Positions 1 through 61,036 of a stretch of 64,000 nucleotides of DNA are shown here, piece by piece. The notes beneath the pieces are model-generated. The model was not told where the DNA came from. It saw only the letters and a program-made list of their open reading frames with translations, and did no database searches. How positions within the stretch are numbered: the first letter of the stretch is position 1; every line of letters starts with the position of its first letter. A program made the translations under genes and the position numbers. Origin of the DNA: Escherichia coli. Its GTDB lineage: Bacteria; Pseudomonadota; Gammaproteobacteria; Enterobacterales; Enterobacteriaceae. The stretch lies in assembly GCF_003334765.1 (NCBI RefSeq), contig NZ_QOWT01000006.1; one strand, 5' to 3'.

Positions 1-493
1 CCAGCCTGCCCGTGGCGCTGTAGCCGTATTCCCGCGTCTGTCGCGGGCCGCTGATGCGCACCAGGTCGCCGTTGTCATTCCACCCGTAGTCACGGTCATA
101 CACCAGGCTGTTCAGGTGCTGGCTCTGTAACTGGCCTGCGGGGGTGTATGTGCTGGTCAGTTTATATGCGGCATTACTGCCTGCCATGCTGCCGAAGCTG
201 CGCACCGTCTCACGGTGCAGGCGGTCGCGCGTGAACTCCAGCAGCGGCGTCCCGCCCAGCTTCATGCCCGCAAGATAGCCGCTGCCGTAGGTCAGCCACT
301 CCACCGGCGGCAGACTGTCCGGCGTGACGCGGTTTGCCAGCCCCTGTTCGTTGTACGCATGTCCGGTCTCATGGTGCCACAGCAGTTCCCCCGTCTCCGG
401 GTTCTCCACCGTCTGGCGTTCGCCGGTCAGGCGGCCTTTATCGTCATAGCCGTAGTGGACCGACACGCGGTGGCCTCCCCCGGCAGCAGCGGC
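1..493 (-). pseudogene. rhsE: Rhs-family core (YD-repeat) fragment; frame is open from 493 to the window edge and continues beyond it; no intact 5' end
   Basis: Minus-strand translation gives YD-repeat motifs (..VHYGYDDKGRL.., ..REYGYSATGRL..). An in-frame stop at 494-496 separates it from the vgrG-like ORF, which is in another frame. The name rests on synteny with yncH/yncG/ansP. Confidence 0.65.
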
Positions 494-538
494 TCAAAGT
501 GAATGCTCCGCCCGCCGTTGTCGTTGAGTACCAGTGCA

Positions 539-1309
539 TCATCGCGTAGCTGTAAGCGGATAGTCCTGGTGCTGGCCTTCCTGTTCAAAACGTCCGGCCC
601 AGCCGGGGCGTTTAAAGGTGTAGTCTTTGGTCACCACGGAAGAAGGGCGGATTTGTGCGCTGTAGCGGAACTGGCTGATGCAGAGGGTGCTCACCTCGGT
701 ACGGGTGTTCGGGTTCCATGGGATTTCAAAAGATTCGGGCAGATGGCGGACTGTGTCGCACAGCACCAGGCTCTGGTCGGTACTTTTGTAAGCATGCTCC
801 TCATAAAAGAAGATGCCTTCCTCCGCCGCCATCCGGCACAGGAAATCGTAATCAGTCTCACCGTACTGGACACAAAACTCACGGGAAGGATGCGGCTCGC
901 TGAACAGCGGACTCCATTCGGTCACCCCGTTTTCCTGCAACATCGTGCCGAGGATGCTTTTGATGTCCTCGTTCTGGAAGATACGGAAGTTCTGGCGCAG
1001 ACCGGCACGCCACAGCGGCGGGTGCACCTTCATGCTGTACAGCATCTGGTTTTTGTCGTTCTCCCCGAGTTCAAACCAGGTCACCACGCCTTTCACCCGG
1101 CGCTGTACTTCATCGCCCTGCCATATCGTCAGGTAGGCCATTTTGTCCAGCACCTGCGCAAATTCAAGGGAGAGAAACTGCTGGCTGACCAGGGAGAGAT
1201 CGAGGGAAAAGAGCGAAGAGAGTGACTGGTTCAGATGAAAGGAAACCACCGCAAAAGCATCCGGCGGCAGGCCGTCCACTTCCAGTGTGAAACGTAATCC
1301 GGTTGACAT
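539..1309 (-). pseudogene. VgrG (type VI secretion spike) N-terminal fragment, truncated after about 256 codons
   Basis: ORF-track protein MSTGLRFTLEVDGLPPDAF... Start moved to the ATG at 1309, which has a CCTCC (GGAGG on minus) Shine-Dalgarno 5 nt upstream. The ORF stops at 539, far short of a full-length VgrG. Confidence 0.65.
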
Positions 1310-2128
1310 AGCAACCTCCGTGAAAATGAATAATAATCCGCACATATTGCATGTACAACATGTCGGGCGGATGAGATAAGCGAGTCGACATCTGGCGTTA
1401 CCGGGGAATATCAGAAAAATGTCATGGTTATGTGATGATTTAGTCTGGGATTTTACTTCAGAGAAACGGGTGTCTGTTTAGTCAACAAAATAATCACAAA
1501 CGCAACGGATGGGTTCTCGACGTTATTCACGACAGGCTCGTACATTACAGCGAGTAATAAAAAACCTGATATGCAAAGTCAAACCAATATTCATAATGTC
1601 TTTTTATTCACAACAATAAATAATTCAATAACAATCATTGAAATGAATGATGGTTTGTATAAGGAATATACGCTACCGCCCCACCCTGATAACATGATCT
1701 GCACATTGCCATCTTAACGTCGTTAAACACTAGCTTAATAGTGGATATTTCAAATTAGGAATTTATTAAATTCACCTGATGAATATAATAAGCAAATAGC
1801 ATAGAAAATAATGACAACTCCCCCGAGGGGACCATTTCCAAAGCACTGCACCACCACCTGGTGCCGGATGATCTTGCTTCAGTGGTAAGAGTACCTGATG
1901 CATTGTTCCCAAAATGGTGTTTTCCCCTGCCCCTCCAATAATGTGTAGCTCTCACTTGATAATCTATTGATTAGGTTATATTAAGAATCAACATTTAAAA
2001 TACATTCATTTTCTTGAATAAATCAACATGTTTATTAATCAATTGCTGTTTTAGCTCTGACTCATCAAGCTCTCCATATTTGTCCTACAGATAATTGCGA
2101 ATAAATACAGAGAACGCCATTTATCCTT

Positions 2129-2341
2129 TTAGCATACCTGCCGGATATTTTTATTTGTATTAATATTAATTGCATCTCCAACTCCGAGCATATCCATCAT
2201 TAAAAACATTTTGAGATTATAGAATGCCTGTGATAACAACTGAAACATCTGCACAATGTGAATAGTTAGTTTCTTTTCAGAGGAAATGAAATAGACACGC
2301 TGAATGAAAAGGAGAGTGATATAAATTAAAAAACATACCAT
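2129..2341 (-). CDS. yncH: small 70-aa protein of unknown function
   Basis: 70-codon ORF in an AT-rich segment; size and position between the rhs remnant and yncG match yncH. Confidence 0.5.
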   Translation of the reverse strand: MVCFLIYITLLFIQRVYFISSEKKLTIHIVQMFQLLSQAFYNLKMFLMMDMLGVGDAININTNKNIRQVC

Positions 2342-2416
2342 GAATTTAATTAATTACGCCCATCATTGTGGATAAAGTTACTGAATAATAAATAACATAA
2401 TCTTCTGGTATCCCAC

Positions 2417-3034
2417 TCAAATAATTTCATTCCTTTTTAATACTTCTTGTAATTTCGGTAACTGACATACAGCATCAGCAATCGCACTGATATTCGTGGC
2501 ATTATCCTGAAACCATTCATGCCCAGGCCCCCATGTGCGCATAGTGCAAAGATAACAGTCCACCAGCGTTAGTTGCTCACCAAACGCATAAGGTTCAGCA
2601 GTGAGCTGCGAATTCAACCAGATATAAAGCGATTTTCGATATTCAATAACATTCTTCTTTAACTGTTCAGGTGCGTCAGGAGCCCAACGCTCAGGGTAAT
2701 CGGCGAAAGTGAATGTTGGATAGACATTAGCAACCAGCCAGACCAATTGCCGTTGAAACAGCTGACGTTCGGCGCGCCCAACCGGTGGCGCAAGGTCCGG
2801 GCGACGATCGAGAACCATCAATGCAATCGCCGCTGTCTCCGTCATAATCTCGTCATTTTCCAATGCCAGTGTCGGAACCTGACACAACGGGTTCAGGGTT
2901 TTCAATAACTCGCGTGAAGCTCCCTCGTGGTCAAAACCACTGACATCAACGAACTGATAAGGAATATCAGCCAGTGTTAGCATCAGCTCACTGATTGTAG
3001 AGCCCCATCCGGGTACGCCATACACCTTAATCAT
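2417..3034 (-). CDS. yncG: glutathione S-transferase homologue
   Basis: 205-aa ORF with a thioredoxin-like N-terminus (MIKVYGVPGWGSTISEL); synteny next to ansP. Confidence 0.8.
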   Translation of the reverse strand: MIKVYGVPGWGSTISELMLTLADIPYQFVDVSGFDHEGASRELLKTLNPLCQVPTLALENDEIMTETAAIALMVLDRRPDLAPPVGRAERQLFQRQLVWLVANVYPTFTFADYPERWAPDAPEQLKKNVIEYRKSLYIWLNSQLTAEPYAFGEQLTLVDCYLCTMRTWGPGHEWFQDNATNISAIADAVCQLPKLQEVLKRNEII

Positions 3035-3300
3035 ATGCCCCTCACAATCTTTTAAAGATTAAGTGTAGGACAGTACACAGGTTAACCAGCAAAAGGATTT
3101 GTCATTTTTTCGTCAGTTGTATTAATCCCCTTCAGGATTGTAAGGGGATGTTTTGCATCGTTTATCGATAACGGGTAGGATGCTGCGCCGATAGTTTTAT
3201 ACCCATAAAGAATAATGGTGATAACTATCATCGCCAGGATGAATAAACATTGTTCATGGCAACTTATATGACTTTTTCATTAAAGCAATCAGGGAGAGCA

Positions 3301-4800
3301 ATGAGTAAACACGACACCGACACTTCAGATCAACACGCCGCGAAACGCCGCTGGCTTAATGCCCACGAAGAGGGGTATCACAAAGCGATGGGCAATCGCC
3401 AGGTGCAGATGATCGCCATTGGCGGCGCGATTGGCACCGGCTTGTTTTTAGGTGCAGGAGCCCGACTGCAAATGGCGGGGCCCGCACTGGCACTGGTTTA
3501 TTTAATTTGTGGCTTGTTTTCGTTTTTTATTCTGCGTGCATTGGGTGAGCTGGTGCTACACCGCCCTTCCAGTGGCAGTTTTGTTTCTTATGCCCGTGAG
3601 TTTTTGGGTGAGAAAGCCGCTTATGTTGCTGGCTGGATGTACTTCATCAACTGGGCGATGACGGGGATTGTTGATATTACCGCCGTCGCTCTGTATATGC
3701 ATTACTGGGGTGCGTTTGGCGGCGTGCCGCAGTGGGTCTTTGCGCTCGCTGCACTTACCATCGTTGGCACCATGAATATGATCGGTGTGAAATGGTTTGC
3801 GGAGATGGAGTTCTGGTTTGCGCTTATTAAAGTGCTCGCCATTGTGACCTTTTTGGTCGTGGGTACAGTGTTCCTCGGTAGTGGTCAGCCGCTGGATGGC
3901 AACACCACTGGCTTTCATTTAATCACCGATAATGGCGGCTTCTTCCCCCACGGTTTGCTGCCTGCGCTGGTGTTGATTCAGGGCGTAGTGTTTGCTTTTG
4001 CCTCCATTGAAATGGTGGGTACAGCTGCCGGAGAATGTAAAGATCCGCAGACCATGGTGCCTAAAGCCATTAACAGTGTGATTTGGCGTATTGGCCTGTT
4101 TTACGTCGGCTCCGTGGTGTTGCTGGTTATGTTATTGCCGTGGAGCGCGTATCAGGCGGGGCAAAGTCCGTTCGTGACGTTTTTCTCTAAACTGGGTGTG
4201 CCATATATCGGCAGCATTATGAACATTGTGGTGCTGACCGCTGCCCTCTCCAGCCTGAATTCAGGTCTGTACTGCACCGGACGTATTCTGCGCTCAATGG
4301 CGATGGGCGGTTCCGCACCGAGTTTTATGGCGAAAATGAGTCGTCAGCATGTGCCGTATGCCGGGATTCTGGCGACACTAGTTGTGTATGTCGTCGGCGT
4401 ATTCCTCAACTATCTGGTGCCGTCGCGCGTATTTGAGATTGTGTTGAACTTCGCGTCGCTGGGAATCATCGCTTCATGGGCGTTTATCATCGTGTGCCAG
4501 ATGCGCCTGCGTAAAGCGATTAAAGAAGGCAAAGCAGCGGATGTCAGTTTTAAACTGCCTGGCGCGCCCTTCACTTCCTGGCTGACATTACTGTTTTTAC
4601 TGAGTGTCCTTGTGCTGATGGCGTTCGATTACCCGAACGGGACTTATACTATCGCGGCGCTGCCGATTATCGGTATTTTGCTGGTTATAGGCTGGTTTGG
4701 TGTGCGCAAACGCGTTGCTGAAATTCACAGCACTGCGCCAGTCGTCGAGGAAGATGAAGAAAAACAGGAAATTGTGTTTAAGCCTGAAACGGCGAGTTAA
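3301..4800 (+). CDS. ansP: L-asparagine permease (APC family amino acid transporter)
   Basis: 499 codons from the ATG at 3301, preceded by AGGGAGAG. Multi-TM protein; the track ORF starts 17 codons further upstream but 3301 has the better RBS and gives the expected length. Confidence 0.9.
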   Translation: MSKHDTDTSDQHAAKRRWLNAHEEGYHKAMGNRQVQMIAIGGAIGTGLFLGAGARLQMAGPALALVYLICGLFSFFILRALGELVLHRPSSGSFVSYAREFLGEKAAYVAGWMYFINWAMTGIVDITAVALYMHYWGAFGGVPQWVFALAALTIVGTMNMIGVKWFAEMEFWFALIKVLAIVTFLVVGTVFLGSGQPLDGNTTGFHLITDNGGFFPHGLLPALVLIQGVVFAFASIEMVGTAAGECKDPQTMVPKAINSVIWRIGLFYVGSVVLLVMLLPWSAYQAGQSPFVTFFSKLGVPYIGSIMNIVVLTAALSSLNSGLYCTGRILRSMAMGGSAPSFMAKMSRQHVPYAGILATLVVYVVGVFLNYLVPSRVFEIVLNFASLGIIASWAFIIVCQMRLRKAIKEGKAADVSFKLPGAPFTSWLTLLFLLSVLVLMAFDYPNGTYTIAALPIIGILLVIGWFGVRKRVAEIHSTAPVVEEDEEKQEIVFKPETAS

Positions 4801-4912: not shown

Positions 4913-5974
4913 TTACAGCGCAATACGAATCACATCGTCTGGCTGGGTAGCTTCCTGCTGTTTAGTGGATTTTTGTTTCACACTGACATACAGCGTTTTG
5001 CCATCGGCAGACAGCGCCAGGCTGTTTGGATGAGTCGGCGTATCGAACGTTTTCACCACTTTATAGCTTTTCGCGTCAATCACACTGACTTTACCTGCCT
5101 GACGATGCGTTACGTAGGCTTCATTACGCGCGGGGTTAAACAGCACAGCCAGTGATTCCGGTGCCGCAACCTTCGTCAGAATATTGCCATTACGGGTATC
5201 GACCACTAACACTTCTGCGGCTTTAGAATCGGTGATAAATGCACGCTGCCTGGCGGTATCAAGGCTAATGTTGATAAAGAAGTGCTCTTTGCCGTCATCC
5301 AGCAGCTTTTTACGGCTGAGGATTTTATTGTCGGCGGTGTCGATGGTAATCAATTCGCCGTCAGCGTTAGTGGTGTAAAGACGTTTGCCTTCGCTATCCA
5401 GCGCCAGACCGGTACTCATTTTACCGGTGTTCTGGATGGCGGTTTTCAGTTTGATATTCCCGCCATCAACGACCCAAATCACGCTCTCTTTACCAATACC
5501 ACTGATGTAAACGGTGTTCGTGGCATCGTCAGCTACCAGCTCACGCGGTTGCAGCGGGCGCACCTCTTCCGTGCGCTTACGATCATCCAGCACCAGACGG
5601 CCTTTCACTTCGCCCGTTTTGGCATCTATCGCCGTGACCGCGCTGTTTACGGTGTTACCAAACCACAACGTCTGAGTCGTGTTATTGATGGTGGCACCAA
5701 ACGGCTTGAGATCGTTATGGATCGCCTGCGTCACTTCCAGAGTGACCGGATCAAGACGATAAACCACGCCACCTTTATCCAGTTTGCGGCTTTGCGAAGT
5801 GGCGAGCCACAGCGCGTTTTCTTGCTGGCTATAAGCCATTTCGTAGGCACCTTTACCTACCGCTTTACGCAGCATTTCTTCTGCGGCCTGCGTACTGAAT
5901 GATGAAACAACAAGCAATGAACCTAACAGTAATGAACCACGCAGGCGCGATGAAAACAGATGACGTAAATGCAT
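4913..5974 (-). CDS. yncE: secreted seven-bladed beta-propeller protein (PQQ-like repeats)
   Basis: 353-aa ORF with a signal peptide (MHLRHLFSSRLRGSLLLGSLLVVSSFSTQA) and repeated propeller blades; divergent from yncD. Confidence 0.85.
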   Translation of the reverse strand: MHLRHLFSSRLRGSLLLGSLLVVSSFSTQAAEEMLRKAVGKGAYEMAYSQQENALWLATSQSRKLDKGGVVYRLDPVTLEVTQAIHNDLKPFGATINNTTQTLWFGNTVNSAVTAIDAKTGEVKGRLVLDDRKRTEEVRPLQPRELVADDATNTVYISGIGKESVIWVVDGGNIKLKTAIQNTGKMSTGLALDSEGKRLYTTNADGELITIDTADNKILSRKKLLDDGKEHFFINISLDTARQRAFITDSKAAEVLVVDTRNGNILTKVAAPESLAVLFNPARNEAYVTHRQAGKVSVIDAKSYKVVKTFDTPTHPNSLALSADGKTLYVSVKQKSTKQQEATQPDDVIRIAL

Positions 5975-6058
5975 GACGACTCCCTTTGATGAACCGATAT
6001 TTTTGCTGCTTCACAATGCTTCGCTAAGCGTAATCATCGTTACGCTCTTGTTATAAAT

Positions 6059-6077
6059 GGGAATGGTAATCATTATT
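6059..6077. promoter_or_regulatory. Fur-box-like sequence in the yncE/yncD divergent promoter
   Basis: gggaatggtaatcattatt matches the 19-bp Fur consensus GATAATGATAATCATTATC at 15 of 19 positions. It lies 85 bp upstream of yncE and 139 bp upstream of the TonB-dependent receptor yncD. Confidence 0.4.
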
Positions 6078-6215
6078 TTCTCAAATGTGGAGCATTTCTT
6101 GCCGTTACGACTACAATTTTCTCAATTACTTAACGTATTGTGCCGTTTCATTTTCCATAAATTTACAATTTCATTACCATGACGGCGTTTTCCCATTCTT
6201 AACCTGGCTTTTTTC

Positions 6216-8318
6216 ATGAAGATTTTTTCCGTCCGACAGACCGTTTTGCCCGCACTGCTTGTCCTTTCCCCCGTTGTTTTTGCCGCTGATGAACAGACTA
6301 TGATTGTCAGTGCCGCACCGCAGGTGGTTTCAGAACTGGATACCCCAGCAGCAGTAAGCGTGGTGGATGGCGAGGAGATGCGCCTGGCAACACCGCGCAT
6401 TAACTTGTCCGAATCACTGACCGGCGTGCCTGGTTTGCAGGTACAAAACCGGCAGAACTATGCGCAAGATTTACAGCTGTCGATTCGCGGATTTGGCTCC
6501 CGCTCCACTTACGGTATTCGCGGTATTCGCCTGTATGTGGACGGTATTCCCGCCACCATGCCCGACGGGCAAGGGCAAACATCCAACATCGATTTAAGCA
6601 GTGTGCAAAATGTGGAAGTGCTGCGTGGCCCCTTCTCTGCCCTGTATGGCAACGCGTCTGGTGGGGTAATGAATGTCACCACCCAGACCGGACAACAGCC
6701 ACCAACCATTGAAGCCAGTAGTTACTACGGCAGTTTTGGCAGCTGGCGCTATGGGCTGAAAGCAACGGGCGCAACGGGAGACGGCACACAGCCTGGCGAT
6801 GTCGATTACACCGTCTCAACCACGCGTTTTACGACCCACGGCTATCGTGACCATAGTGGCGCACAGAAAAATTTAGCCAATGCCAAACTGGGCGTACGCA
6901 TTGATGAAGCCAGCAAATTAAGTCTGATTTTCAATAGTGTGGATATCAAAGCAGATGACCCAGGTGGGCTAACCAAAGCAGAATGGAAGGCTAATCCACA
7001 ACAAGCGCCTCGTGCAGAACAGTACGACACGCGAAAAACCATCAAGCAAACTCAGGCTGGGTTGCGCTATGAGCGTAGCCTGAGTTCGCGGGATGATATG
7101 AGTGTGATGATGTATGCCGGAGAGCGAGAAACGACCCAGTACCAGTCAATACCCATGGCACCACAACTTAACCCGTCACATGCGGGCGGCGTGATTACCC
7201 TGCAACGCCATTACCAGGGAATAGACAGCCGCTGGACACACCGTGGTGAACTGGGCGTTCCGGTCACGTTCACTACCGGCCTGAACTACGAAAACATGAG
7301 TGAAAACCGCAAGGGCTACAATAACTTCCGCCTGAATAGCGGCATGCCGGAGTACGGGCAAAAAGGTGAGTTGCGTCGCGACGAACGCAATCTGATGTGG
7401 AACATCGATCCCTATTTACAGACGCAGTGGCAGCTGAGCGAAAAACTGTCGCTGGATGCTGGCGTGCGCTACAGCTCCGTGTGGTTTGATTCCAACGACC
7501 ATTACGTTACTCCGGGTAACGGCGATGACAGCGGTGATGCCAGTTATCATAAATGGCTACCTGCCGGTTCGTTAAAATATGCAATGACCGATGCCTGGAA
7601 TATCTATCTGGCAGCCGGGCGAGGTTTTGAAACGCCGACGATTAATGAGCTGTCTTATCGTGCTGATGGGCAAAGCGGTATGAACTTAGGTTTAAAACCA
7701 TCCACCAACGATACAATTGAGATCGGCAGTAAAACGCGTATTGGTGATGGGCTGCTTAGTCTCGCATTGTTTCAGACCGACACTGATGATGAAATTGTTG
7801 TCGATAGCAGTAGCGGTGGGCGTACGACTTACAAAAATGCCGGAAAGACCCGTCGTCAAGGCGCTGAACTGGCATGGGATCAACGTTTCGCAGGAGATTT
7901 TCGCGTAAACGCGTCCTGGACCTGGCTTGATGCGACCTATCGCAGCAATGTTTGCAATGAACAGGATTGTAACGGTAATCGGATGCCAGGGATCGCCCGT
8001 AATATGGGCTTTGCGTCGATAGGTTATGTACCGGAAGATGGTTGGTATGCAGGCACGGAAGCGCGTTATATGGGCGATATTATGGCAGATGATGAAAATA
8101 CGGCAAAAGCGCCGTCTTATACTCTCGTCGGCTTATTCACCGGGTATAAATACAATTACCACAATTTAACTGTGGATTTATTTGGTCGTGTCGATAATTT
8201 ATTCGATAAAGAATACGTTGGTTCTGTCATTGTCAATGAGTCAAACGGGCGATATTACGAACCTTCGCCCGGACGAAATTATGGTGTCGGCATGAATATT
8301 GCGTGGAGATTTGAGTAA
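6216..8318 (+). CDS. yncD: TonB-dependent outer-membrane receptor
   Basis: 700-aa ORF with a signal peptide, plug domain and beta-barrel. Confidence 0.85.
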   Translation: MKIFSVRQTVLPALLVLSPVVFAADEQTMIVSAAPQVVSELDTPAAVSVVDGEEMRLATPRINLSESLTGVPGLQVQNRQNYAQDLQLSIRGFGSRSTYGIRGIRLYVDGIPATMPDGQGQTSNIDLSSVQNVEVLRGPFSALYGNASGGVMNVTTQTGQQPPTIEASSYYGSFGSWRYGLKATGATGDGTQPGDVDYTVSTTRFTTHGYRDHSGAQKNLANAKLGVRIDEASKLSLIFNSVDIKADDPGGLTKAEWKANPQQAPRAEQYDTRKTIKQTQAGLRYERSLSSRDDMSVMMYAGERETTQYQSIPMAPQLNPSHAGGVITLQRHYQGIDSRWTHRGELGVPVTFTTGLNYENMSENRKGYNNFRLNSGMPEYGQKGELRRDERNLMWNIDPYLQTQWQLSEKLSLDAGVRYSSVWFDSNDHYVTPGNGDDSGDASYHKWLPAGSLKYAMTDAWNIYLAAGRGFETPTINELSYRADGQSGMNLGLKPSTNDTIEIGSKTRIGDGLLSLALFQTDTDDEIVVDSSSGGRTTYKNAGKTRRQGAELAWDQRFAGDFRVNASWTWLDATYRSNVCNEQDCNGNRMPGIARNMGFASIGYVPEDGWYAGTEARYMGDIMADDENTAKAPSYTLVGLFTGYKYNYHNLTVDLFGRVDNLFDKEYVGSVIVNESNGRYYEPSPGRNYGVGMNIAWRFE

Positions 8319-42317: not shown

Positions 42318-45300
42318 TTAACCGCTAATCTGCTCCATCGCCTGCAAAATACGCTTATCTGAAATCGGATAAGGCGTACCAAGTTGTTGAGCGAAGTAAC
42401 TAACGCGCAACTCTTCTATCATCCAACGGATCTCTTTCACGTCTTCATCCTCACGACGTGCGGGCGGCAGTTTGTTGATCCATTGCTGCCACGCCTGCTG
42501 GACGTTTTCGACTTTCAGCATCTGCGCACGGTCGCGATGTGGATCAACCGCCAGTTTTTCCAGCCGTTTTTCAATCGCCTGCAAATATCGCAGCGTGTCG
42601 CCCAGCCGTTTGAAGCCGTTACCAGTGACAAAACCGCGATATACCAACCCGCCCATCTGCGCTTTAATGTCAGAAAGCCCCAGCGCCATGGTCATATCCA
42701 CCCGCCCTTTCAGACGTTTGTTGATATTGAACACTGCCGTAAGGATTTGCTCGACCTGCTTCGCAATATCCACCACCGTGTCGTTCAGTTCGGCACGCAC
42801 TTTTTCATGCAGCGCAGCAAAGCCTTCTTCCGTCCAGACCGGGCCACCATTGGCGTCGATCAATTTATCCACACCGCAGGAGATACAGTCGTCGATCAGC
42901 TCCAGCACTTTGCCATACGGGTTAAAGTACAGTCCCAGCTTGGCTTTGTTCGGTAACTTTTCATGTAAATATTTGATTGGCGATGGAATATTCAGCAGCA
43001 GTAGACGGCGAAGACCGTTCCACATTGCCTGCTTTTGCTCCAGCGGGTTATCAAACAGTTTGATCGCCACACTGTCGCGCTCATCCACCAGCGCCGGCCA
43101 CGCCTTCACTTTGTAGTTGCCACGCTTCTGTTCGTAGCTTTCCGGCAGCTGACCAAAACTCCAGATATGTAAGCCGCTCTGCTCGATACCGTCATCCGCC
43201 ACCGCAGATAGCGTTTCCTGCACTTTGCCTTTCAGCGCATCTTTCAGATCTTGTAGCGAGCGCCCTTCTTTTAGCTTCTTGTTTTTGTCATCCACCACGC
43301 GGAAGGTAATTTTCAGGTGATCGGGCACCTGATCCCAGTGCCAGTCTTCGCGGTCAACGGTAACGCCGGTCATCCGCCGTAACTCGCGCTCAAGGCTGTC
43401 GAGCAACGGTAACTCCAGCGGTTTGACGCGGCCTAAAAACGCTTCGGCATAGTTTGGCGCGGGTACAAAATTACGGCGTACCGGTTTCGGCAACGATTTA
43501 ATCAGAGCAATCACCAGTTCGCGGCGCAGACCGGGGATCTGCCATTCAAACCCGCTTTCCTCAACCTGGTTAAGTAACGGCAGCGGAATATGTACGGTCA
43601 CACCGTCAGCATCCGCGCCGGGCTCAAACTGATAGCTCAAACGCAGCTTGAGATTGCCCTGATGCCAGAAGTTCGGGTAATCCAGCTTGCTGATTTTTTC
43701 TGCGCCCTCTTTGATCAACATGCTTTTTTCAAAGTTGAGCAAATCAGGCGTTTCGCGGCTGACTTTTTTCCACCAGCTGTCGAAGTGGCGAGCGGAGATT
43801 ACATCGTGGCTGATGCGCTGGTCGTAGAACTCAAACAACGTTTCGTCATCAACCAGAATATCGCGGCGACGTGATTTGTGTTCCAGCTCTTCTACTTCCG
43901 CCCGTAGTTTCAGGTTTTCACGGAAGAATGCGTGACGCGTCTGCCAGTCACCTTCCACCAGCGCGTGGCGAATAAAGAGTTCACGACATAACGCCGGATC
44001 GATCTGGCTGTAGTTGACCTTGCGCGCGGCAACAATCGGCAAACCATAAACAGTGACTTTTTCCGTTGCCATCACCGCGCCCTGCGCCCGTTCCCAGTGC
44101 GGTTCGCTGTAGGTGCGTTTAATCAAATGCTGAGCAACTGGCTCCACCCATTCCGGGTCGATACGCGCAGCAATGCGCCCCCACAGGCGGCTGGTTTCTA
44201 CCAGTTCCGCCACCATTACCCATTTAGGCGGTTTTTTGAATAAACCAGAACCGGGGAAGATGGAGAAACGCGCGTTACGTGCGCCGGTATATTCTTGTTT
44301 ATCGGCATCTTTCATGCCGATATGGGAAAGTAAACCGGTCAGCAACGCAATGTGAATTTCGCGATACTCCGCCGGTTCGCTGTTAACCGGAATGCCAAGT
44401 TCTTTCACCACCTGACGCAACTGGGTGTAGATATCCTGCCATTCGCGCACGCGCAGATAGTTGAGATAATCGGTACGACACAGGCGACGGAAGGCGTTGG
44501 AAGAAAGCGCCTTTTGCTGCTCGCCAAGATAATTCCACAGATTCACAAACGCGAGAAAGTCAGACTCTTTGTCGTGGAAGCGACGATGTTTTTCGTCCGA
44601 TGCCTGCTGTTTGTCCATCGGACGTTCGCGCGGATCCTGAATGGAGAGCGCGGACGTGATAATCATCGCCTCACGCACGCAGCCATGTTTTTGCGCTTCC
44701 AGCACCATACGCGCCAGACGTGGGTCGACAGGCAACTGCGAGAGCTGGCGACCGAGCGGCGTCAGTTTATAGGCGCTGGCCTGTTCATCAGTGGTGATCG
44801 CGCCCAGCTCTTCGAGCAGACGCACGCCATCCTGGATATTGCGTTTATCCGGTGCTTCGACAAACGGGAACGCAGCGATATCGCCCAGCCCCAGCGCGGT
44901 CATCTGCAAAATAACCGAGGCCAGGTTGGTACGCAGAATCTCCGGATCGGTAAACTCCGGGCGCGAGAGGAAATCGTCTTCGGAATAGAGACGAATACAG
45001 ATCCCTTCGGACACACGACCACAGCGGCCTTTACGCTGATTGGCAGACGCCTGGGAAATCGGCTCAATCGGCAAACGCTGCACTTTGGTGCGATAGCTGT
45101 AGCGGCTGATACGCGCTGTACCGGGGTCGATAACGTATTTAATCCCCGGTACGGTCAGCGACGTTTCCGCGACGTTGGTCGCCAGCACAATGCGCCGTCC
45201 GCTGTGCGACTGGAATACCCTATTTTGTTCGCTGTTCGAAAGCCGCGCATAAAGCGGCAAGATTTCGGTATGGCGTAAGTTCAGCTTGTTCAGCGCATCG

Positions 45301-46220
45301 GCGGTATCGCGGATTTCCCGCTCGCCGCTCATAAAGATCAGAATGTCGCCATGGCTTTCCTGACTCAGTTCGTCTACGGCGTCAAAAATCGCCTGCAACT
45401 GATCGCGCTCGGTGTCATCGGCTTCTTCAACAATCGGGCGATAGCGCACTTCCACCGGATAGGTCCGACCGGAGACTTCAATAATCGGCGCATTATTAAA
45501 GTGGCGCGAAAAGCGTTCCGGGTCGATAGTCGCGGAAGTGATAATGATTTTTAGGTCAGGACGCCGCGGCAGCAACTCTTTCAAATAGCCGAGCAAAAAA
45601 TCGATATTCAGGCTGCGTTCGTGCGCTTCGTCAATAATGATAGTGTCGTACTGCATCAGCAGGCGGTCTTGCTGGATCTCCGCCAGCAGGATACCGTCGG
45701 TCATCAGCTTGACCATCGTGTTATCACTTACGTGATCGCTGAAACGCACTTTGTAACCGATGCAACCGCCCGGCTCCGTTTTCAGCTCTTCCGCAATACG
45801 GTTCGCCACTGTTCTTGCCGCCAGACGACGCGGCTGGGTATGGCCGATCAGTCCTTTAATCCCGCGCCCCAGCTCCATACAGATTTTCGGTAACTGAGTC
45901 GTTTTACCAGAACCCGTTTCCCCGGCGACGATCACCACCTGGTGATCACGAATCGCTTCGAGAATGTCCTGTTTTTTCTGACTAACCGGTAAATTGTCAG
46001 GATAAGTAATTTCCGGTCGTGCCGCTTCACGCAGCAGGACTTTCCCTGCCGCCTGGTCAATCTCTTTCGCCATCTCCTGGAAAATGGCCTGTTGTGCATC
46101 AGGATTTTTAACCTTCTTCACGCCGTGCAGACGGCGAGAAAAACGCAGTCTGTCACGCAGCATCAGCGAATCCAGCCGCTGCTGCAAGGCCGTAAAGGTC
46201 AATTTTTGTTGTTCTGTCAT
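42318..46220 (-). CDS. hrpA: ATP-dependent DEAH-box RNA helicase
   Basis: 1300-aa ORF with Walker A GETGSGKTTQLP, DEAH box (IIIDEAHERS) and helicase C-terminal domains. Confidence 0.9.
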   Translation of the reverse strand: MTEQQKLTFTALQQRLDSLMLRDRLRFSRRLHGVKKVKNPDAQQAIFQEMAKEIDQAAGKVLLREAARPEITYPDNLPVSQKKQDILEAIRDHQVVIVAGETGSGKTTQLPKICMELGRGIKGLIGHTQPRRLAARTVANRIAEELKTEPGGCIGYKVRFSDHVSDNTMVKLMTDGILLAEIQQDRLLMQYDTIIIDEAHERSLNIDFLLGYLKELLPRRPDLKIIITSATIDPERFSRHFNNAPIIEVSGRTYPVEVRYRPIVEEADDTERDQLQAIFDAVDELSQESHGDILIFMSGEREIRDTADALNKLNLRHTEILPLYARLSNSEQNRVFQSHSGRRIVLATNVAETSLTVPGIKYVIDPGTARISRYSYRTKVQRLPIEPISQASANQRKGRCGRVSEGICIRLYSEDDFLSRPEFTDPEILRTNLASVILQMTALGLGDIAAFPFVEAPDKRNIQDGVRLLEELGAITTDEQASAYKLTPLGRQLSQLPVDPRLARMVLEAQKHGCVREAMIITSALSIQDPRERPMDKQQASDEKHRRFHDKESDFLAFVNLWNYLGEQQKALSSNAFRRLCRTDYLNYLRVREWQDIYTQLRQVVKELGIPVNSEPAEYREIHIALLTGLLSHIGMKDADKQEYTGARNARFSIFPGSGLFKKPPKWVMVAELVETSRLWGRIAARIDPEWVEPVAQHLIKRTYSEPHWERAQGAVMATEKVTVYGLPIVAARKVNYSQIDPALCRELFIRHALVEGDWQTRHAFFRENLKLRAEVEELEHKSRRRDILVDDETLFEFYDQRISHDVISARHFDSWWKKVSRETPDLLNFEKSMLIKEGAEKISKLDYPNFWHQGNLKLRLSYQFEPGADADGVTVHIPLPLLNQVEESGFEWQIPGLRRELVIALIKSLPKPVRRNFVPAPNYAEAFLGRVKPLELPLLDSLERELRRMTGVTVDREDWHWDQVPDHLKITFRVVDDKNKKLKEGRSLQDLKDALKGKVQETLSAVADDGIEQSGLHIWSFGQLPESYEQKRGNYKVKAWPALVDERDSVAIKLFDNPLEQKQAMWNGLRRLLLLNIPSPIKYLHEKLPNKAKLGLYFNPYGKVLELIDDCISCGVDKLIDANGGPVWTEEGFAALHEKVRAELNDTVVDIAKQVEQILTAVFNINKRLKGRVDMTMALGLSDIKAQMGGLVYRGFVTGNGFKRLGDTLRYLQAIEKRLEKLAVDPHRDRAQMLKVENVQQAWQQWINKLPPARREDEDVKEIRWMIEELRVSYFAQQLGTPYPISDKRILQAMEQISG

Positions 46221-55267: not shown

Positions 55268-58200
55268 TTAGAACGTTTTCTTGAAGTTCAGCATCACGCC
55301 TTTATCGCTGATGCCATCCTCTTTCCAGTTGTACGCATCCAGATTCAGCGAACTTTCTTTGCTGCTGTACTTCACGCCGACGCTTGTCAGGCTATTGATG
55401 CCGCCGCCCTTCTGACCGTCATCGACGTTAAAGTGCTGACTGCCTGCGCCTGCCAGGCTTGCCGTACGCTGGCTCTTCGCGTAGCTCAGGTTCGGCCCGC
55501 CTTCCAGCGTAGCGCTAGCGCTCCAGCCGTCTTTACCTGCGTAGTCCAGTTTCAGCCCGACGATGCTGTCCACCGCCGTTTCGCTGCCACTGTTCATATT
55601 CAGGTTAAAGTCTCCGGCATTGCGCTCCTGATAGCCACCTTCCAGTGTGTGACGCAGTTTTACACCCGCATATGGCGTAACCTTCAGTCCTTCGCTCGGT
55701 TCGAAAGTCTTCGCCCCTTCGCTGCGGAACTCCAGGTACTGCTGTTTCACGTCGGTATCAGCCGTTTTGTTCGTGTTGCCAAATGCAATCGAGCGGCTGC
55801 TGTCAAGGTTGTGAACGTCGTAACGCAAGGCGTTATTCCAGTTCATGCCGTTATCGAACGACATCTGATGTTTCAGGCCAAAAAACTGGCTATAACCGCC
55901 TGTAACGCCATTATCACCCGCTTTCTGCGCACCATCACCATCGAGACGAGCGATACCGTACTCCAGACTCATCGTCTGGCTTTCGCTCAGGTCGATAGTT
56001 TTACGCAATGCCAGCATGTCGTATTCGGTATTATTACCTAACTCGGCACGCGGATCGCCTTTCGCGACAACGTTGAACGCCAGACCGTTACCCACTTTCG
56101 GCGCGGCATCTGCCAGCATACTAAAGCGGTTGCTTAACACGCGCGCTTCGCGGAATACCGTGGTCGCCTGGCTACCGCTGACCTGTTTCAGAGCACTGTT
56201 CAGTTCAGCAGTCGTGCCGACGTTCAGGCTGGTAAACAGTTCGTTGTTGGTGTAACCCGCATCCAGTGCTTTCGCGATGTCATTCACCGAGGCATCTGTT
56301 GCCACATCGGTGTAGGCATTTTTGCTCATGGTGACGTCAACGTTACCGCTGGCATCGGTGCTGCCTTTGGCAGTCCATACCACGGACGTTGAGGTGATGG
56401 CGTCAGCGTCGGTCAGGTTGCTACCTTCCACTACGTTATCAAAACTCACAGTGGTGTCTGCCGTACCAGCGGTAAAGCCCGTGTTAATCTCCACGCCGTT
56501 CATGCTGGCATTGTTAACCTTCAGCTTCCCGGCGCTGCCGTTAACGTTGGTACCGACGACATAGCCGTTGAGGTTGTTCATGCTGCCACCAGCCTCATCA
56601 CTTCCCGACGTTACACTAACCGTATTGGGCTTCGGCACATCCGGCAACGTATAGTCGCCATAATGCACTTCGCTGCTATTACCGTTGTTACCGTTCATAC
56701 CTTCAACATTGATGCTGTCGCCCTGCTTGATCAGTCCAGAACCCGTAACCCCATCGGCAATCACCACCGTGCCGTTGTTAACCACATGACCTACTGTACC
56801 CAGTACGCTAAATGCAAACGAGTCATTGGCGAAGATATTGATGGTGCCGTTGTTTTCGATTACCGCATCCGCCGTGGCGTTGGCATCGAGTTGCATACCG
56901 ATCATACCCGTGTCAGTAGTGCCTGCGGTACCGAGGTTGATGGTGCCATTGTTAACCAGCTGCGCGTTCTTATCACCTTCCATAGCCACAGCACCGGTGC
57001 CGCTGATGTTCATGATGCCGTCATTCTGGGCAATAAAGTTGCTGTGGGTGACTTTCACGGCACTGGCGCTGTCGTGATCGAAGTTGATGACCCCGTTATC
57101 CTGGTTCCAGAAGAAGGCATTCTGATCGCCGGCATTATTAGCGCTGACTACCAGTGACTTCGCAGAAACATCAATCGTTCCGTCATTGATAAAACGACCA
57201 TTTCCGCCCCACATATTAACGGCTCCGTTGTGGGAAGAATTACTGATGTTCATGTGACCGGTATTATAAAGCGTACCGGACTGGTTGATGTGCACAGCAT
57301 TCTTGTCGTTATCAAGAATAAACTCGCCGCGGTTATTGAAAGCTGAATTATTATTAACTTCCAGCATCCCGGTGTTGTTACCCTCACTACTACTTCCGAG
57401 GTTCCAGGTTCCTTCGTTATTTGCCACTGCAGTACCTGTCAGCGCAGCACCTCTCATAATCGCCCCGTCAGTTTGATTATTAAAGACCCCGCCAGCCGAC
57501 ATCATCCGCCCTGTTACACTGCCACTATTATTGAATACCCCCGCGTTCTGCACGATTTTATTGATGGTTCCGGTGTTGTTCACTAACGAACTATCAGCAC
57601 CAGCATTCATGGTAATTTGCGCAGTCATTTCTCCGGCATTATTGAGGATTCCACCGCTAACATCGACGTTATTCGTCATCACCCCGGCATTTTTAATGAC
57701 GGCACCCTTGTCAAGTTTTACTAAGTTATTGATGATGCCACCGCTGGTATTTTCCAGAAGACCGCTTGATACCGTAATTTGATCACCGGAAAGCGTTCCG
57801 CTATTAACAACATTCCCAGCCAGCTTATCAGTCACAGCAGCAGATTTATTTAGCGTTACAGTTTCTCCGCTTCGTGTAATCGTATCGCCACCGGTATAGA
57901 TCAGTGAGGTGAAATCATCTGTATTATTGTACTCATTCCCCGATTGGCACACGCCGAAAGTGCAGATTGTACCATAGTTAACAATTGTTCCTGTGCCATC
58001 GTTATAAAACGCCTGACCAGTACCAACATTGATATTGATAACACCCGTCTGGTCGTTGATAGCAGTACCATGCTCATAAACAGCCATCCCTACCAGAGTA
58101 TTTGCTGCCAGACTATCGTCATAATTACCATTTTTTTCGAGGTTAATCGTCCCCTGGTTAATAACTGTATTGCTGGCGCCATAGGCCGCCATACCTGCGC

Positions 58201-61036
58201 CGGCGTTATAAATAGTTATAACACCGCCCAATTGGTTAATTGCTGTTGCATTTTTCCCTGCACCACTATAACTATCAGTACCAACTCCCACACCTGTACC
58301 GAAGTCAATGGCGCTGTTGCTAGCTATATCTCGCATTGCGGTAGTGTCATTTGCATCTACCCACATAGAATCCAGTGTAATTTTACCCTGATTTTCTGCT
58401 GTTGAATCTGCTATAGCAAGCATGCCGACACTACCACGACCATACAAATCAATGATGCCGCTGTCAGTATTGATAATTGTGCTATTCGATTGAGCGACTA
58501 ACCCTGTTATGCTACTGACATCGTTATTAAAAATAAATGAATTCGATGTGCCCGTTGAATACTTGTTAAATACGCTATGTTGTTCCGTCACTTTACCTGT
58601 GATCGTACCTGCATTAGTGGCGCTCCCTCCGTTAGTAGCCAGTAAAACAATGGGAGACGGTGCCGGATCTTTACCATTTTGTAATAACGAGATCGTGCCA
58701 CTATTTATACCTGTTGTATTTTCACCAGTAACAAAAGCAAAACCTAAATTCTGAATTTCAACAGTACCTTTATTAACAATTTTCGCACCGGAATCAGCAT
58801 AAGTAAGTTCTGGGGTTCTTGTCCCATGATGTTCAAAACTGTCAATATCCTGCATTGTTAGCGTAGCGCCACTGCCAATTTCCAGCAAAGCTTTATCCTG
58901 TACCCGAATAACCCCGGCAAACCCCAGAGGGAATTCTCCGCTGATTGTCGTATCTCCATTCAGATATACCGACGACTCACCACTAACGACAATAACGCTG
59001 GTATAACTATATCCTGTGCGCAAGGAAGTAACCTGCGACCCATCTGCAAGCGCGTTTTTCTCTCCAATCAGTTCAAGTCCACCATTCATATTAACGGTAT
59101 TGCCATCGCCAATCACAACCAGACCTGACGTTTTCTCTGCGCTGCCATCAAATAAATTACTCTGACGAGAAGTAACCTCACTGTCTGATACAACAGTTAA
59201 CTTTCCATCCAGCGTCACGTTATTATCACTGCCGTAAACGTTGATACCCACGGATGGATCGAAGAAATATTCCGCCGCATTGTCTGCGGTTTTATCCTTA
59301 TCAACCAGAACGTTACCAGTGATATTCACTGTATTCGCATCGCCAGAAACGTTTATGCCCGTCGCTTTCTGCCCGACCACTTTTAGATCTTTTGCCGCCA
59401 GCGTCACGCTGTTATTGTTGCCATTAAGATCTACCCCGGTCGAGAAATCGCCAACCTGCATACTGCCTGCCAGCGAAACCTTCCCACTGTTGGTTGTGAT
59501 GCTGAACCCTGTCGCTTCATTGCTAACGTTAACATCACCCGTATTGGATACTGTTGCCCCCTCACCGTTGATGAGCACGCCAATCGATCCAGTATCGGAA
59601 ACAACAATATCTCCTTTGTTGTTAACCGTGCCGTTGTCACCAATGTTCTCAACACCATGCGCACCGCCTGTAACAGTCAGGCTACCATCCAGATTTACAA
59701 TGCCGATATTGCCCGCGATTTTGGTACCCGTGGAATCTTTTCCATCAACAGTGGTTTTTCCACTGTTATTCGCGGTGGCGTCGTTACCGTTGATCTGAGT
59801 GCCGGTGCCGCCATTGGTGATAGTGCTCTCGCCTTCGTTATTGACGATGGCCTGGTCGCCGTCAATCTGGATACCGATGGACTCCGGATCGGTGACGGTC
59901 ATGGTGCCCTTGTTATCCACCGTTGCGCTGTCGCCGGTGATATCAATACCGTGACCGCCGCCGCTGACATCCAGATCGCCGTCCTGAATAACTTTTCCGT
60001 TATTACCGTTGATTTCCGTACCGGTGGAATCCTTGCCGTCAACGGTGGTTTTGCCGTTGTTGTTTGCCGTGGCGTCATCACCATTAATCTGGGTGCCGGT
60101 GCCACCGTTGGTGATGGTGCTCTCGCCTTCGTTATTGACGATGGCCTTGTCACCGTCGATCTGGATACCCATGGACTCCGGATCGGTGACGGTCATGGTG
60201 CCCTTGTTATCCACCGTCGCGCTGTCACCGGTGATATCAATACCGTGACCGCCGCCGCTGACATCCAGATCGCCGTCCTGAATCACTTTCCCGTTATTAC
60301 CGTTGATTTCCGTACCGGTGGAATCTTTACCGTCAACGGTGGTTTTGCCATTGTTGTTTACTGTGGCATTATCACCCGTAATAACAAGCTCACCGTTGTG
60401 ATTATATTGCCACTTCGTTGCGCCATCTGCGCTCACCCCTTCAAGGGCAACAGTGTTATTCGCTTCATCAATCTGCCAAAGATTAATCGTTGCCTTACGA
60501 CCATTGCTATCTTGCAGAGATATAGTCCCGTCAGCATTCTCGGTATAAGTAAAAACTGAATCGCGAATAGTTAACGTTTTTTCTGTTTTATCGAGAATAA
60601 CGTCATTATTAAACGAAACCGGTTTGGGAGGTGTAGGCGTATCATCCGGATCGTCCGGTATTATCTCATCTCCGCCAGGAGTTGGGGGAACTGGAGTGTC
60701 GTCTGATTCATCATCAGGGGGTGTCGGTGGGAGTGGAGAATTGTTGCGATGATGATGATCATCATCGTCGTTTAGTTCCACTACGGCTAAGGCCGTGATT
60801 AACGCAGCAGCGCCTGTGGAAAGCCATGGCATCAGGTTTTGTTCGACTAAAGGAGAGCATTCAGAGGGTAAGCGTTTAAGCTCTTCCGGACTGAGTTTTC
60901 CTGGGTCTGCCGGACAAGTCACATTGGTATTTTTCTTTTCACCTGTGGTGGTTTCTACCTCTGTGATATCTGCCGCCCAACCCTGACCACTCAGAGCTAA
61001 TGCAATACAGGCCGACAATAGAGTTTTCCTTTGCAT
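55268..61036 (-). CDS. ydbA: type V autotransporter (large repeat-rich passenger plus C-terminal beta-barrel), uninterrupted
   Basis: 1922-aa ORF with a signal peptide (MQRKTLLSACIALALSGQGWA), a Pro/Asp-rich linker, a Gly/Asn/Thr-rich beta-helical passenger with tandem repeats, and a C-terminal barrel ending ..NFKKTF. Confidence 0.85.
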   Translation of the reverse strand: MQRKTLLSACIALALSGQGWAADITEVETTTGEKKNTNVTCPADPGKLSPEELKRLPSECSPLVEQNLMPWLSTGAAALITALAVVELNDDDDHHHRNNSPLPPTPPDDESDDTPVPPTPGGDEIIPDDPDDTPTPPKPVSFNNDVILDKTEKTLTIRDSVFTYTENADGTISLQDSNGRKATINLWQIDEANNTVALEGVSADGATKWQYNHNGELVITGDNATVNNNGKTTVDGKDSTGTEINGNNGKVIQDGDLDVSGGGHGIDITGDSATVDNKGTMTVTDPESMGIQIDGDKAIVNNEGESTITNGGTGTQINGDDATANNNGKTTVDGKDSTGTEINGNNGKVIQDGDLDVSGGGHGIDITGDSATVDNKGTMTVTDPESIGIQIDGDQAIVNNEGESTITNGGTGTQINGNDATANNSGKTTVDGKDSTGTKIAGNIGIVNLDGSLTVTGGAHGVENIGDNGTVNNKGDIVVSDTGSIGVLINGEGATVSNTGDVNVSNEATGFSITTNSGKVSLAGSMQVGDFSTGVDLNGNNNSVTLAAKDLKVVGQKATGINVSGDANTVNITGNVLVDKDKTADNAAEYFFDPSVGINVYGSDNNVTLDGKLTVVSDSEVTSRQSNLFDGSAEKTSGLVVIGDGNTVNMNGGLELIGEKNALADGSQVTSLRTGYSYTSVIVVSGESSVYLNGDTTISGEFPLGFAGVIRVQDKALLEIGSGATLTMQDIDSFEHHGTRTPELTYADSGAKIVNKGTVEIQNLGFAFVTGENTTGINSGTISLLQNGKDPAPSPIVLLATNGGSATNAGTITGKVTEQHSVFNKYSTGTSNSFIFNNDVSSITGLVAQSNSTIINTDSGIIDLYGRGSVGMLAIADSTAENQGKITLDSMWVDANDTTAMRDIASNSAIDFGTGVGVGTDSYSGAGKNATAINQLGGVITIYNAGAGMAAYGASNTVINQGTINLEKNGNYDDSLAANTLVGMAVYEHGTAINDQTGVININVGTGQAFYNDGTGTIVNYGTICTFGVCQSGNEYNNTDDFTSLIYTGGDTITRSGETVTLNKSAAVTDKLAGNVVNSGTLSGDQITVSSGLLENTSGGIINNLVKLDKGAVIKNAGVMTNNVDVSGGILNNAGEMTAQITMNAGADSSLVNNTGTINKIVQNAGVFNNSGSVTGRMMSAGGVFNNQTDGAIMRGAALTGTAVANNEGTWNLGSSSEGNNTGMLEVNNNSAFNNRGEFILDNDKNAVHINQSGTLYNTGHMNISNSSHNGAVNMWGGNGRFINDGTIDVSAKSLVVSANNAGDQNAFFWNQDNGVINFDHDSASAVKVTHSNFIAQNDGIMNISGTGAVAMEGDKNAQLVNNGTINLGTAGTTDTGMIGMQLDANATADAVIENNGTINIFANDSFAFSVLGTVGHVVNNGTVVIADGVTGSGLIKQGDSINVEGMNGNNGNSSEVHYGDYTLPDVPKPNTVSVTSGSDEAGGSMNNLNGYVVGTNVNGSAGKLKVNNASMNGVEINTGFTAGTADTTVSFDNVVEGSNLTDADAITSTSVVWTAKGSTDASGNVDVTMSKNAYTDVATDASVNDIAKALDAGYTNNELFTSLNVGTTAELNSALKQVSGSQATTVFREARVLSNRFSMLADAAPKVGNGLAFNVVAKGDPRAELGNNTEYDMLALRKTIDLSESQTMSLEYGIARLDGDGAQKAGDNGVTGGYSQFFGLKHQMSFDNGMNWNNALRYDVHNLDSSRSIAFGNTNKTADTDVKQQYLEFRSEGAKTFEPSEGLKVTPYAGVKLRHTLEGGYQERNAGDFNLNMNSGSETAVDSIVGLKLDYAGKDGWSASATLEGGPNLSYAKSQRTASLAGAGSQHFNVDDGQKGGGINSLTSVGVKYSSKESSLNLDAYNWKEDGISDKGVMLNFKKTF
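59816..60403. repeat. two tandem 294-bp (98-codon) near-identical repeats inside ydbA, flanked by more diverged copies
   Basis: Copy 59816-60109 versus 60110-60403 is about 95% identical by eye; encodes repeated NNGKTTVDGKDSTGTEINGNNGKVIQDGDLDVSGGGHGIDITGDSATVDNKGTMTVTDPES... units. Confidence 0.8.

Follow-up and report, generated by a model that had tools for sequence, protein, structure and literature searches.

Does the 19-mer resembling a Fur box that lies between the divergent genes yncE and yncD of Escherichia coli act as an operator for Fur and, if so, which of the two genes does it control? We addressed this question in a window of 64,000 nucleotides, the whole stretch of E. coli DNA analysed here, which agrees with E. 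coli K-12 MG1655 at every base between 4800 and 8400 (100% identity). The two genes are separated by a 241-bp spacer (5975-6215; G+C 0.37). On the minus strand, yncE (4913-5974), which turns out to be the gene under regulation, is a 353-aa ORF encoding a Sec-exported, seven-bladed beta-propeller protein that has a typical Sec signal peptide, scores 561 bits against the NCBIfam model NF052280 and matches the PDB entries 3VGZ, 3VH0 and 7SEU. In E. coli yncE is monocistronic, and it adjoins the gene of the unrelated PqqU. YncE is a vaccine and typhoid-carrier antigen. On the plus strand, the divergent neighbour yncD (6216-8318; 700-aa ORF) is pqqU: its product matches PDB 6V81 as well as 9C4O, which was deposited under the name "pyrroloquinoline quinone transporter", and reaches 1312 bits against the PqqU equivalog model NF041535 (cut-off 1200). 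PqqU is the high-affinity, TonB-dependent importer of pyrroloquinoline quinone (PQQ), and pqqU is not the main target of the operator. The ORFs, the identity to MG1655 and the PDB matches agree with an earlier note on this DNA, which had placed the 19-mer between a beta-propeller gene and a TonB receptor gene.

Sequence, conservation and occupancy of the Fur box

The primary 19-bp Fur box, gggaatggtaatcattatt (that is, GGGAATGGTAATCATTATT, or AATAATGATTACCATTCCC on the yncE strand), occupies positions 6059-6077 and matches the Fur consensus GATAATGATAATCATTATC at 15 of 19 positions on the plus strand; we recomputed these coordinates and this count, which the earlier note had given correctly. 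The box is composed of the hexamers GGGAAT and GGTAAT, a C and the hexamer ATTATT, and is overlapped by a second 19-mer (6053-6071; 14.3 bits with the matrix described below) in the 6-bp hexamer register expected of a Fur array. The two 19-mers form an extended array spanning 6053-6077.

Matches at 15 or more of the 19 positions occur at two loci of the 64-kb window, the yncE spacer and a GATGAT repeat within a 1922-aa ORF; in first-order Markov simulations, chance supplies 0.18 of them per 64 kb, and 0.002 in a 241-bp stretch as AT-rich as the spacer. Since a 4.6-Mb genome would by chance contain about twelve matches of this quality, the 15/19 match alone is not decisive. As positive controls we took eight classic Fur promoters of K-12 (NC_000913.3): fepA-fes, fepD-entS, fepB-entC, fhuA, cirA, tonB, exbB and ryhB. 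Their best consensus matches range from 12 to 16 of 19, which places the 15 of yncE in the upper half. A matrix was then built from these eight sites, leaving yncE out, and used for the matrix scan that the earlier note had proposed: 6059-6077 came out as the best match in the window, ranking first among about 128,000 positions with 16.9 bits, while the leave-one-out scores of the eight controls lie between 8.0 and 17.3 bits. Similarly to the boxes of fepB-entC (ATAAATGATAATCATTATT) and ryhB (GACAATAATAATCATTCTC), which match the consensus at 15-16 of 19 positions, the yncE box is a 19-bp palindrome of GATAAT-like hexamers.

The GATGAT repeat is a palindromic sequence (GATGATGATGATCATCATCGTC; 60748-60769, in the ORF 55268-61036) that matches the Fur consensus at 15-16 of 19 positions. 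This is no operator but a low-complexity stretch of coding sequence, which probably encodes many Asp and Ile residues.

To evaluate conservation, we took one genome per species, which gave 80 yncE loci spread over some 20 Enterobacteriaceae genera. Upstream DNA of sufficient length is available for 78 of these loci, and every one of the 78 keeps the Fur core, [A/C][A/T]TAATGATT[A/G][C/T][C/T]ATTC, some 100 bp ahead of the yncE start codon. In an alignment of 29 species, the most conserved 19-nt windows of the spacer fall within 6057-6077 (mean column identity 0.94-0.95), above the ribosome-binding site and start codon of yncE (0.88). The left half-site reads GGGAAT GGTAAT in E. coli, as against GAGAAT AGTAAT in most other genera.

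The loci where yncD has been lost are informative. The gene is absent from nine Citrobacter species and shortened in E. albertii (loci L004, L008, L009, L012, L014, L017, L019, L020, L025 and L079 of our set), and the Fur box stays with yncE. At the loci that lack yncD, the upstream neighbour of yncE is curA or mcbR and the conserved block proximal to yncD is gone, while the Fur box, an upstream block (CTCCACATT) and the leader elements described below are retained. The Fur box, in other words, belongs to yncE. One of these loci (L008) has an unrelated 470-aa ORF where yncD would be. The CFT073 annotation gives yncD as a pseudogene; from these losses it follows that PQQ import is dispensable in several lineages.

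Published data place Fur on this very site. Fur has been found upstream of yncE by ChIP in both MG1655 and CFT073, and ChIP-exo located peak P44 of MG1655 at 1521238-1521250 (U00096.2), in the iron-replete condition only, and peak P54 of W3110, assigned to yncD and yncE, at 1524928-1524940 (PMC10164565). Both peaks, which belong to the iron-replete condition only, were mapped by means of the MG1655 and W3110 records, W3110 having the same spacer as the window; the summits fall at 6054-6066 for MG1655 and 6055-6067 for W3110, both inside the hexamer array. It is worth noting that, in the MG1655 sheet of Dataset 2 (Gao et al. 2023), the transcription-unit, locus-tag and gene columns sit one row off the coordinates from P37 onward (PMC10164565): position 1309033, for example, is labelled acnA and lies at tonB. 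The yncE label of that sheet accordingly sits on an intragenic yncD peak, and P44 is the intergenic yncE peak after correction (PMC10164565).

Published expression data point the same way. In fur mutants, yncE rises by 3.1-8.1 log2 units (about 8- to 280-fold) in eight of nine E. coli strains, with +3.10 in MG1655 (from about 300 to 2650; 8.6-fold), +5.30 in W (from 94 to 3960; about 40-fold) and +8.14 in W3110 (from 18 to 4600), which ranks it among the genes most strongly derepressed. A western blot of a fur mutant shows overproduction of the YncE protein; yncE is induced 16-fold under iron limitation and is a member of both Fur iModulons. The statement in the earlier note that yncE is Fur-regulated is thereby borne out by the summits on the box, the derepression and the overproduced protein. 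In the literature consulted, yncE figures among the direct Fur targets from 2003 on and recurs in every later Fur ChIP or transcriptome study, and later papers credit the Fur box of its promoter to earlier work. The Fur operator of yncE is therefore already known, and is an ordinary, published case: similarly to canonical Fur boxes, it is occupied only with iron and gives strong derepression in fur mutants, and it would also lie over a core promoter. We see no essential difference from these boxes; the left half, GGGAAT GGTAAT, is G-rich.

Could the 19-mer nevertheless be a chance resemblance in AT-rich promoter DNA, conserved on account of the yncE -10 hexamer or of a regulator other than Fur? 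With its G+C of 0.37, the spacer is indeed AT-rich, and the putative -10 hexamer inside the box means that part of the conservation could be that of the promoter. However, the conservation extends over all 19-25 bp and not only over six, ChIP-exo and ChIP-seq put Fur on the site in several strains and in the iron-replete condition only, and the derepression of yncE in fur mutants is among the strongest. Furthermore, distant yncE homologues that reside in other genomic contexts have Fur boxes of their own upstream. Chance resemblance is effectively refuted by these data, and we regard it as extremely improbable. Taken as a whole, the evidence is best explained by 6059-6077 being the Fur operator of the yncE promoter, a conclusion that we hold with high confidence.

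The yncE promoter and its leader RNA

From the pattern of conservation, we infer that yncE is served, on the minus strand, by a -35 hexamer TCCACA (6091-6086) and a -10 hexamer TACCAT (6068-6063) located 17 nt downstream, inside the Fur box. Across loci, the -10 position reads TACTAT in 60, TATTAT in 9 and TACCAT in 8, while the -35 position, at a fixed spacing of 17 nt, reads TCCACA in 42 and TCCACT in 25; the block CTCCACATT that holds the candidate -35 has a column identity of about 0.9. Both hexamers of yncE are weak, each matching the consensus at 4 of 6 positions. Transcription would start near 6056 and yield a leader of about 80 nt, so that the Fur array would span roughly -21 to +3. 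An operator at such a position is the usual layout for repression by occlusion. An alternative -10 would be TATAAC (6055-6050); with it, the Fur array would still overlap the yncE core promoter. Because the operator overlaps the inferred -10 (TACCAT) and the spacer of the promoter, occlusion is the most likely mode of yncE repression.

Downstream of the promoter, two conserved elements lie in the presumed leader. The first is a stem-loop of 7 bp (6027-6046, minus strand), in which all seven base pairs exhibit compensatory changes across the 28 species compared: pairing holds in 93.9% of cells, versus 31-52% when the partners are slid, and 52 cells carry double changes, versus 17.6 in shuffles. 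Many of the pairs are G.U pairs in the yncE sense, and the loop keeps the motif C[C/G]ATGA[C/T]. A search of 5850-6350 against Rfam returned no family. The stem-loop was also considered as a terminator; since it has no T-run and shows G.U pairs in the yncE sense, we prefer to see it as a leader RNA structure. Two other candidates in this region were discarded. A plus-strand promoter proposed by a sigma-70 scan (TTCACA-16-AATCAT; 6010-6037) has a -10 that reads GTCATG in most genera, and an upstream ORF starting from the ATG of the loop (MITLSEAL in E. coli) has neither its ATG nor its frame conserved.

The second element, GAAGCATTGTGA / GAAGCnATGTGA (6011-6022, minus strand), sits just downstream of the stem-loop and is the complement of nucleotides 46-57 of RyhB. 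RyhB activates both the yncE mRNA and its translation, as established by ribosome profiling, a lacZ fusion and RIL-seq, and it contributes about threefold to yncE under iron limitation. Using a verified RyhB sequence, we found that 13 of 28 species have 11-12 contiguous pairs with 6011-6022. One U.U mismatch breaks the pairing in E. coli, which fits the weak CopraRNA energy reported for yncE; CopraRNA also ranks yncE poorly. Unconstrained RNAduplex runs of RyhB on the leader had no more than a marginal advantage over shuffles (p about 0.05-0.07), and were replaced by the count of contiguous pairs because they gave unrealistic long-range duplexes. We consider 6011-6022 a candidate RyhB pairing site of yncE. 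The closest parallel is cirA, named in the literature along with yncE as a dual target of Fur and RyhB: both genes are repressed by Fur at the promoter and activated by RyhB through the leader after transcription. How RyhB pairs with its target has been elucidated for cirA, whereas for yncE the putative site 6011-6022 is imperfect in E. coli.

By putting these elements together, we propose that, in the presence of iron, Fe2+-Fur dimers would fill the GATAAT-like hexamers of 6053-6077, thereby covering the spacer and the -10 of the yncE promoter and shutting out RNA polymerase. As iron drops, Fur would depart from the array and yncE transcription would go up about ten- to several hundred-fold. 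RyhB, which is itself repressed by Fur, would then pair with the leader of about 80 nt and make yncE mRNA and translation about threefold higher again; Fur and RyhB would thus act on yncE as a coherent feed-forward loop. As for the divergent promoter of pqqU, its predicted place is another conserved block, some 100 bp off, and the effect on it would be weak and conditional at most.

The divergent neighbour pqqU

The earlier note had gone further and regarded yncE and yncD as one iron-responsive uptake or surface module, the substrate of which it left open. According to published work, that substrate is PQQ and YncD has no role in iron acquisition, so the site is no argument for a new iron-uptake system. 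Also against such a module, a yncE deletion mutant equals its parent strain in PQQ assays, including PQQ-dependent growth, and nine Citrobacter species and E. albertii keep the box without an intact yncD. The question that is left is whether Fur, bound to the box, directly represses both yncE and pqqU as one iron-responsive unit, with the box as a shared bidirectional operator.

The response of pqqU in fur mutants depends on the strain. MG1655 and W show no change (0.12 log2, not significant, and -0.10, respectively), even though yncE goes up 8.6-fold and about 40-fold in these strains; pqqU rises by 2.95 log2 in W3110 (p = 2.7e-51; from about 4-5 to 32) and by 2.02 log2 in 042. Within the nine-strain set, the Fur dynamic range is widest in W3110 and 042, W3110 has the same spacer as the window, and the authors of the study assigned the single intergenic ChIP-exo peak of these two strains to both transcription units. 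Weak Fur-like 19-mers also extend from the box toward pqqU (6103-6121, 7.9 bits; 6160-6178, 6.9 bits; 6296-6314, 11.3 bits), which makes spreading of Fur at high occupancy conceivable. On the other hand, earlier array and ChIP studies reportedly saw no response of yncD to Fur or iron. The center of the box is 148 bp away from the pqqU start codon, and the conserved block proximal to pqqU is separate, about 60-120 bp from the box. In addition, evolution has uncoupled the two genes, as seen above from the loss of yncD with the box kept in nine Citrobacter species and E. albertii and from the CFT073 pseudogene; PqqU imports PQQ rather than iron, and the yncE deletion has no PQQ phenotype.

A comparison with the enterobactin cluster leads in the same direction. 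Like yncE and pqqU, the pairs fepA-fes, fepD-entS and fepB-entC are divergent genes, 110-374 bp apart, with Fur boxes in the spacer. Both genes of each enterobactin pair belong to the core Fur regulon in nine of nine strains, whereas at the present locus only yncE does; pqqU responds in two of nine strains, and its product is not an iron transporter. An arrangement of the fepA-fes type, with an operator over both core promoters and genes that are linked in evolution, is not what we find here. We consequently judge a shared bidirectional operator unlikely. The increases in W3110 and 042 can be read as a weak, additional repression of pqqU at very high Fur occupancy, perhaps through spreading over 6103-6121 and 6160-6178; they could equally well be indirect effects. 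The W3110 fur mutant brings pqqU to the wild-type level of the other strains. A real, direct effect of Fur on pqqU is, to our mind, improbable. If it did occur, such conditional repression would tie PQQ scavenging to the iron status of the cell and contradict the current statement that PqqU is Fur-independent.

The conserved block on the pqqU side (about 6130-6181, plus strand), which is separate from the Fur box, deserves a description of its own. It opens with an imperfect palindrome, TTAACG-N8-CGTTAA (6130-6149), which is degenerate in E. coli and is found as an exact TTAAC-N9-11-GTTAA on the pqqU side of 27 of 74 loci. The palindrome is followed by TTTTCA, ATTTACAA and TAACAT or TACCAT. 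The block probably contains the pqqU promoter along with a site for some regulator; to our knowledge, the palindrome fits none of the motifs of CRP, PhoB, PmrA, TyrR, Cra and GntR. Of the weak Fur-like 19-mers, the one at 6296-6314 (13 of 19 positions) lies inside the 5' coding region of pqqU and is of uncertain relevance. A minor MG1655 ChIP-exo peak, P43 (6324-6360 of the window), is located about 20-30 bp from it and was labelled as intragenic to yncD and not differentially expressed (PMC10164565).

YncE relatives and other Fur-like sites

We also looked at distant homologues of YncE, taken from cluster representatives with 39-54% identity, which still reach the equivalog cut-off of NF052280. 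At a locus of the Pantoea sp. At-9b type, an esterase gene is followed by a gene for a 667-aa TonB receptor of the CirA/IreA type and then by the YncE-family gene; the receptor is 25% identical to PqqU, and a strong Fur box (GCAAATGATAATCATTGTC; 16 of 19 positions) lies upstream of the operon. In Citrobacter, a YncE paralogue has next to it a co-oriented gene for a 669-aa catecholate-type receptor, with a Fur-like site (13 of 19) just upstream. Another homologue (54% identity), which has no receptor gene next to it, retains the core AATGATTACTATTCTC on its upstream side. The Fur boxes of the distant YncE-family loci are found at 348-366 of locus L091, 1998-2016 of L092 and 3872-3890 of L089. 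These operons and E. coli yncE share the protein family (above the NF052280 cut-off) and the Fur-like boxes upstream; they differ in that the propeller gene of Pantoea and Citrobacter is co-transcribed with a CirA/IreA-like receptor gene (plus the esterase gene in Pantoea), the receptor being only about 25% identical to PqqU.

The YncE family is, therefore, repeatedly linked to Fur and to catecholate-type receptors, and not to PqqU. This context supports an older guess in the literature that YncE serves iron acquisition, and suggests that the adjacency of yncE and pqqU in E. coli is incidental. Our tentative and, for the moment, rather doubtful proposal is that YncE is a periplasmic accessory of catecholate-siderophore uptake, its adjacency to PqqU being incidental, with the related idea that Fur represses pqqU conditionally. 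Such an accessory could, for example, bind or hydrolyse a siderophore. The homologues in receptor operons with Fur boxes hint at where the function of YncE should be sought. Work on YncE should also benefit from the operator and leader elements, which are conserved over about 20 genera and move with yncE, as well as from the candidate RyhB site and the covarying hairpin in the leader.

Two other Fur-like sites of the window can be mentioned. A 19-mer (AATAATGGTGATAACTATC; 3211-3229; 14 of 19 positions, 14.7 bits) lies 72-90 nt upstream of ansP (3301-4800, plus strand), and the ChIP-exo tables report no peak at this site. In fur mutants, ansP changes by -1.39 log2 in MG1655 and -2.23 in W, with no drop in W3110. 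The gene converges on yncE across a 112-bp gap with no obvious terminator, and its decrease could come from read-through of derepressed yncE or from RyhB. The other site (45534-45552; 14.7 bits) is inside the coding sequence of a 1300-aa ORF (42318-46220), which is probably hrpA; the ChIP-exo table of strain W contains a peak inside hrpA under iron starvation.
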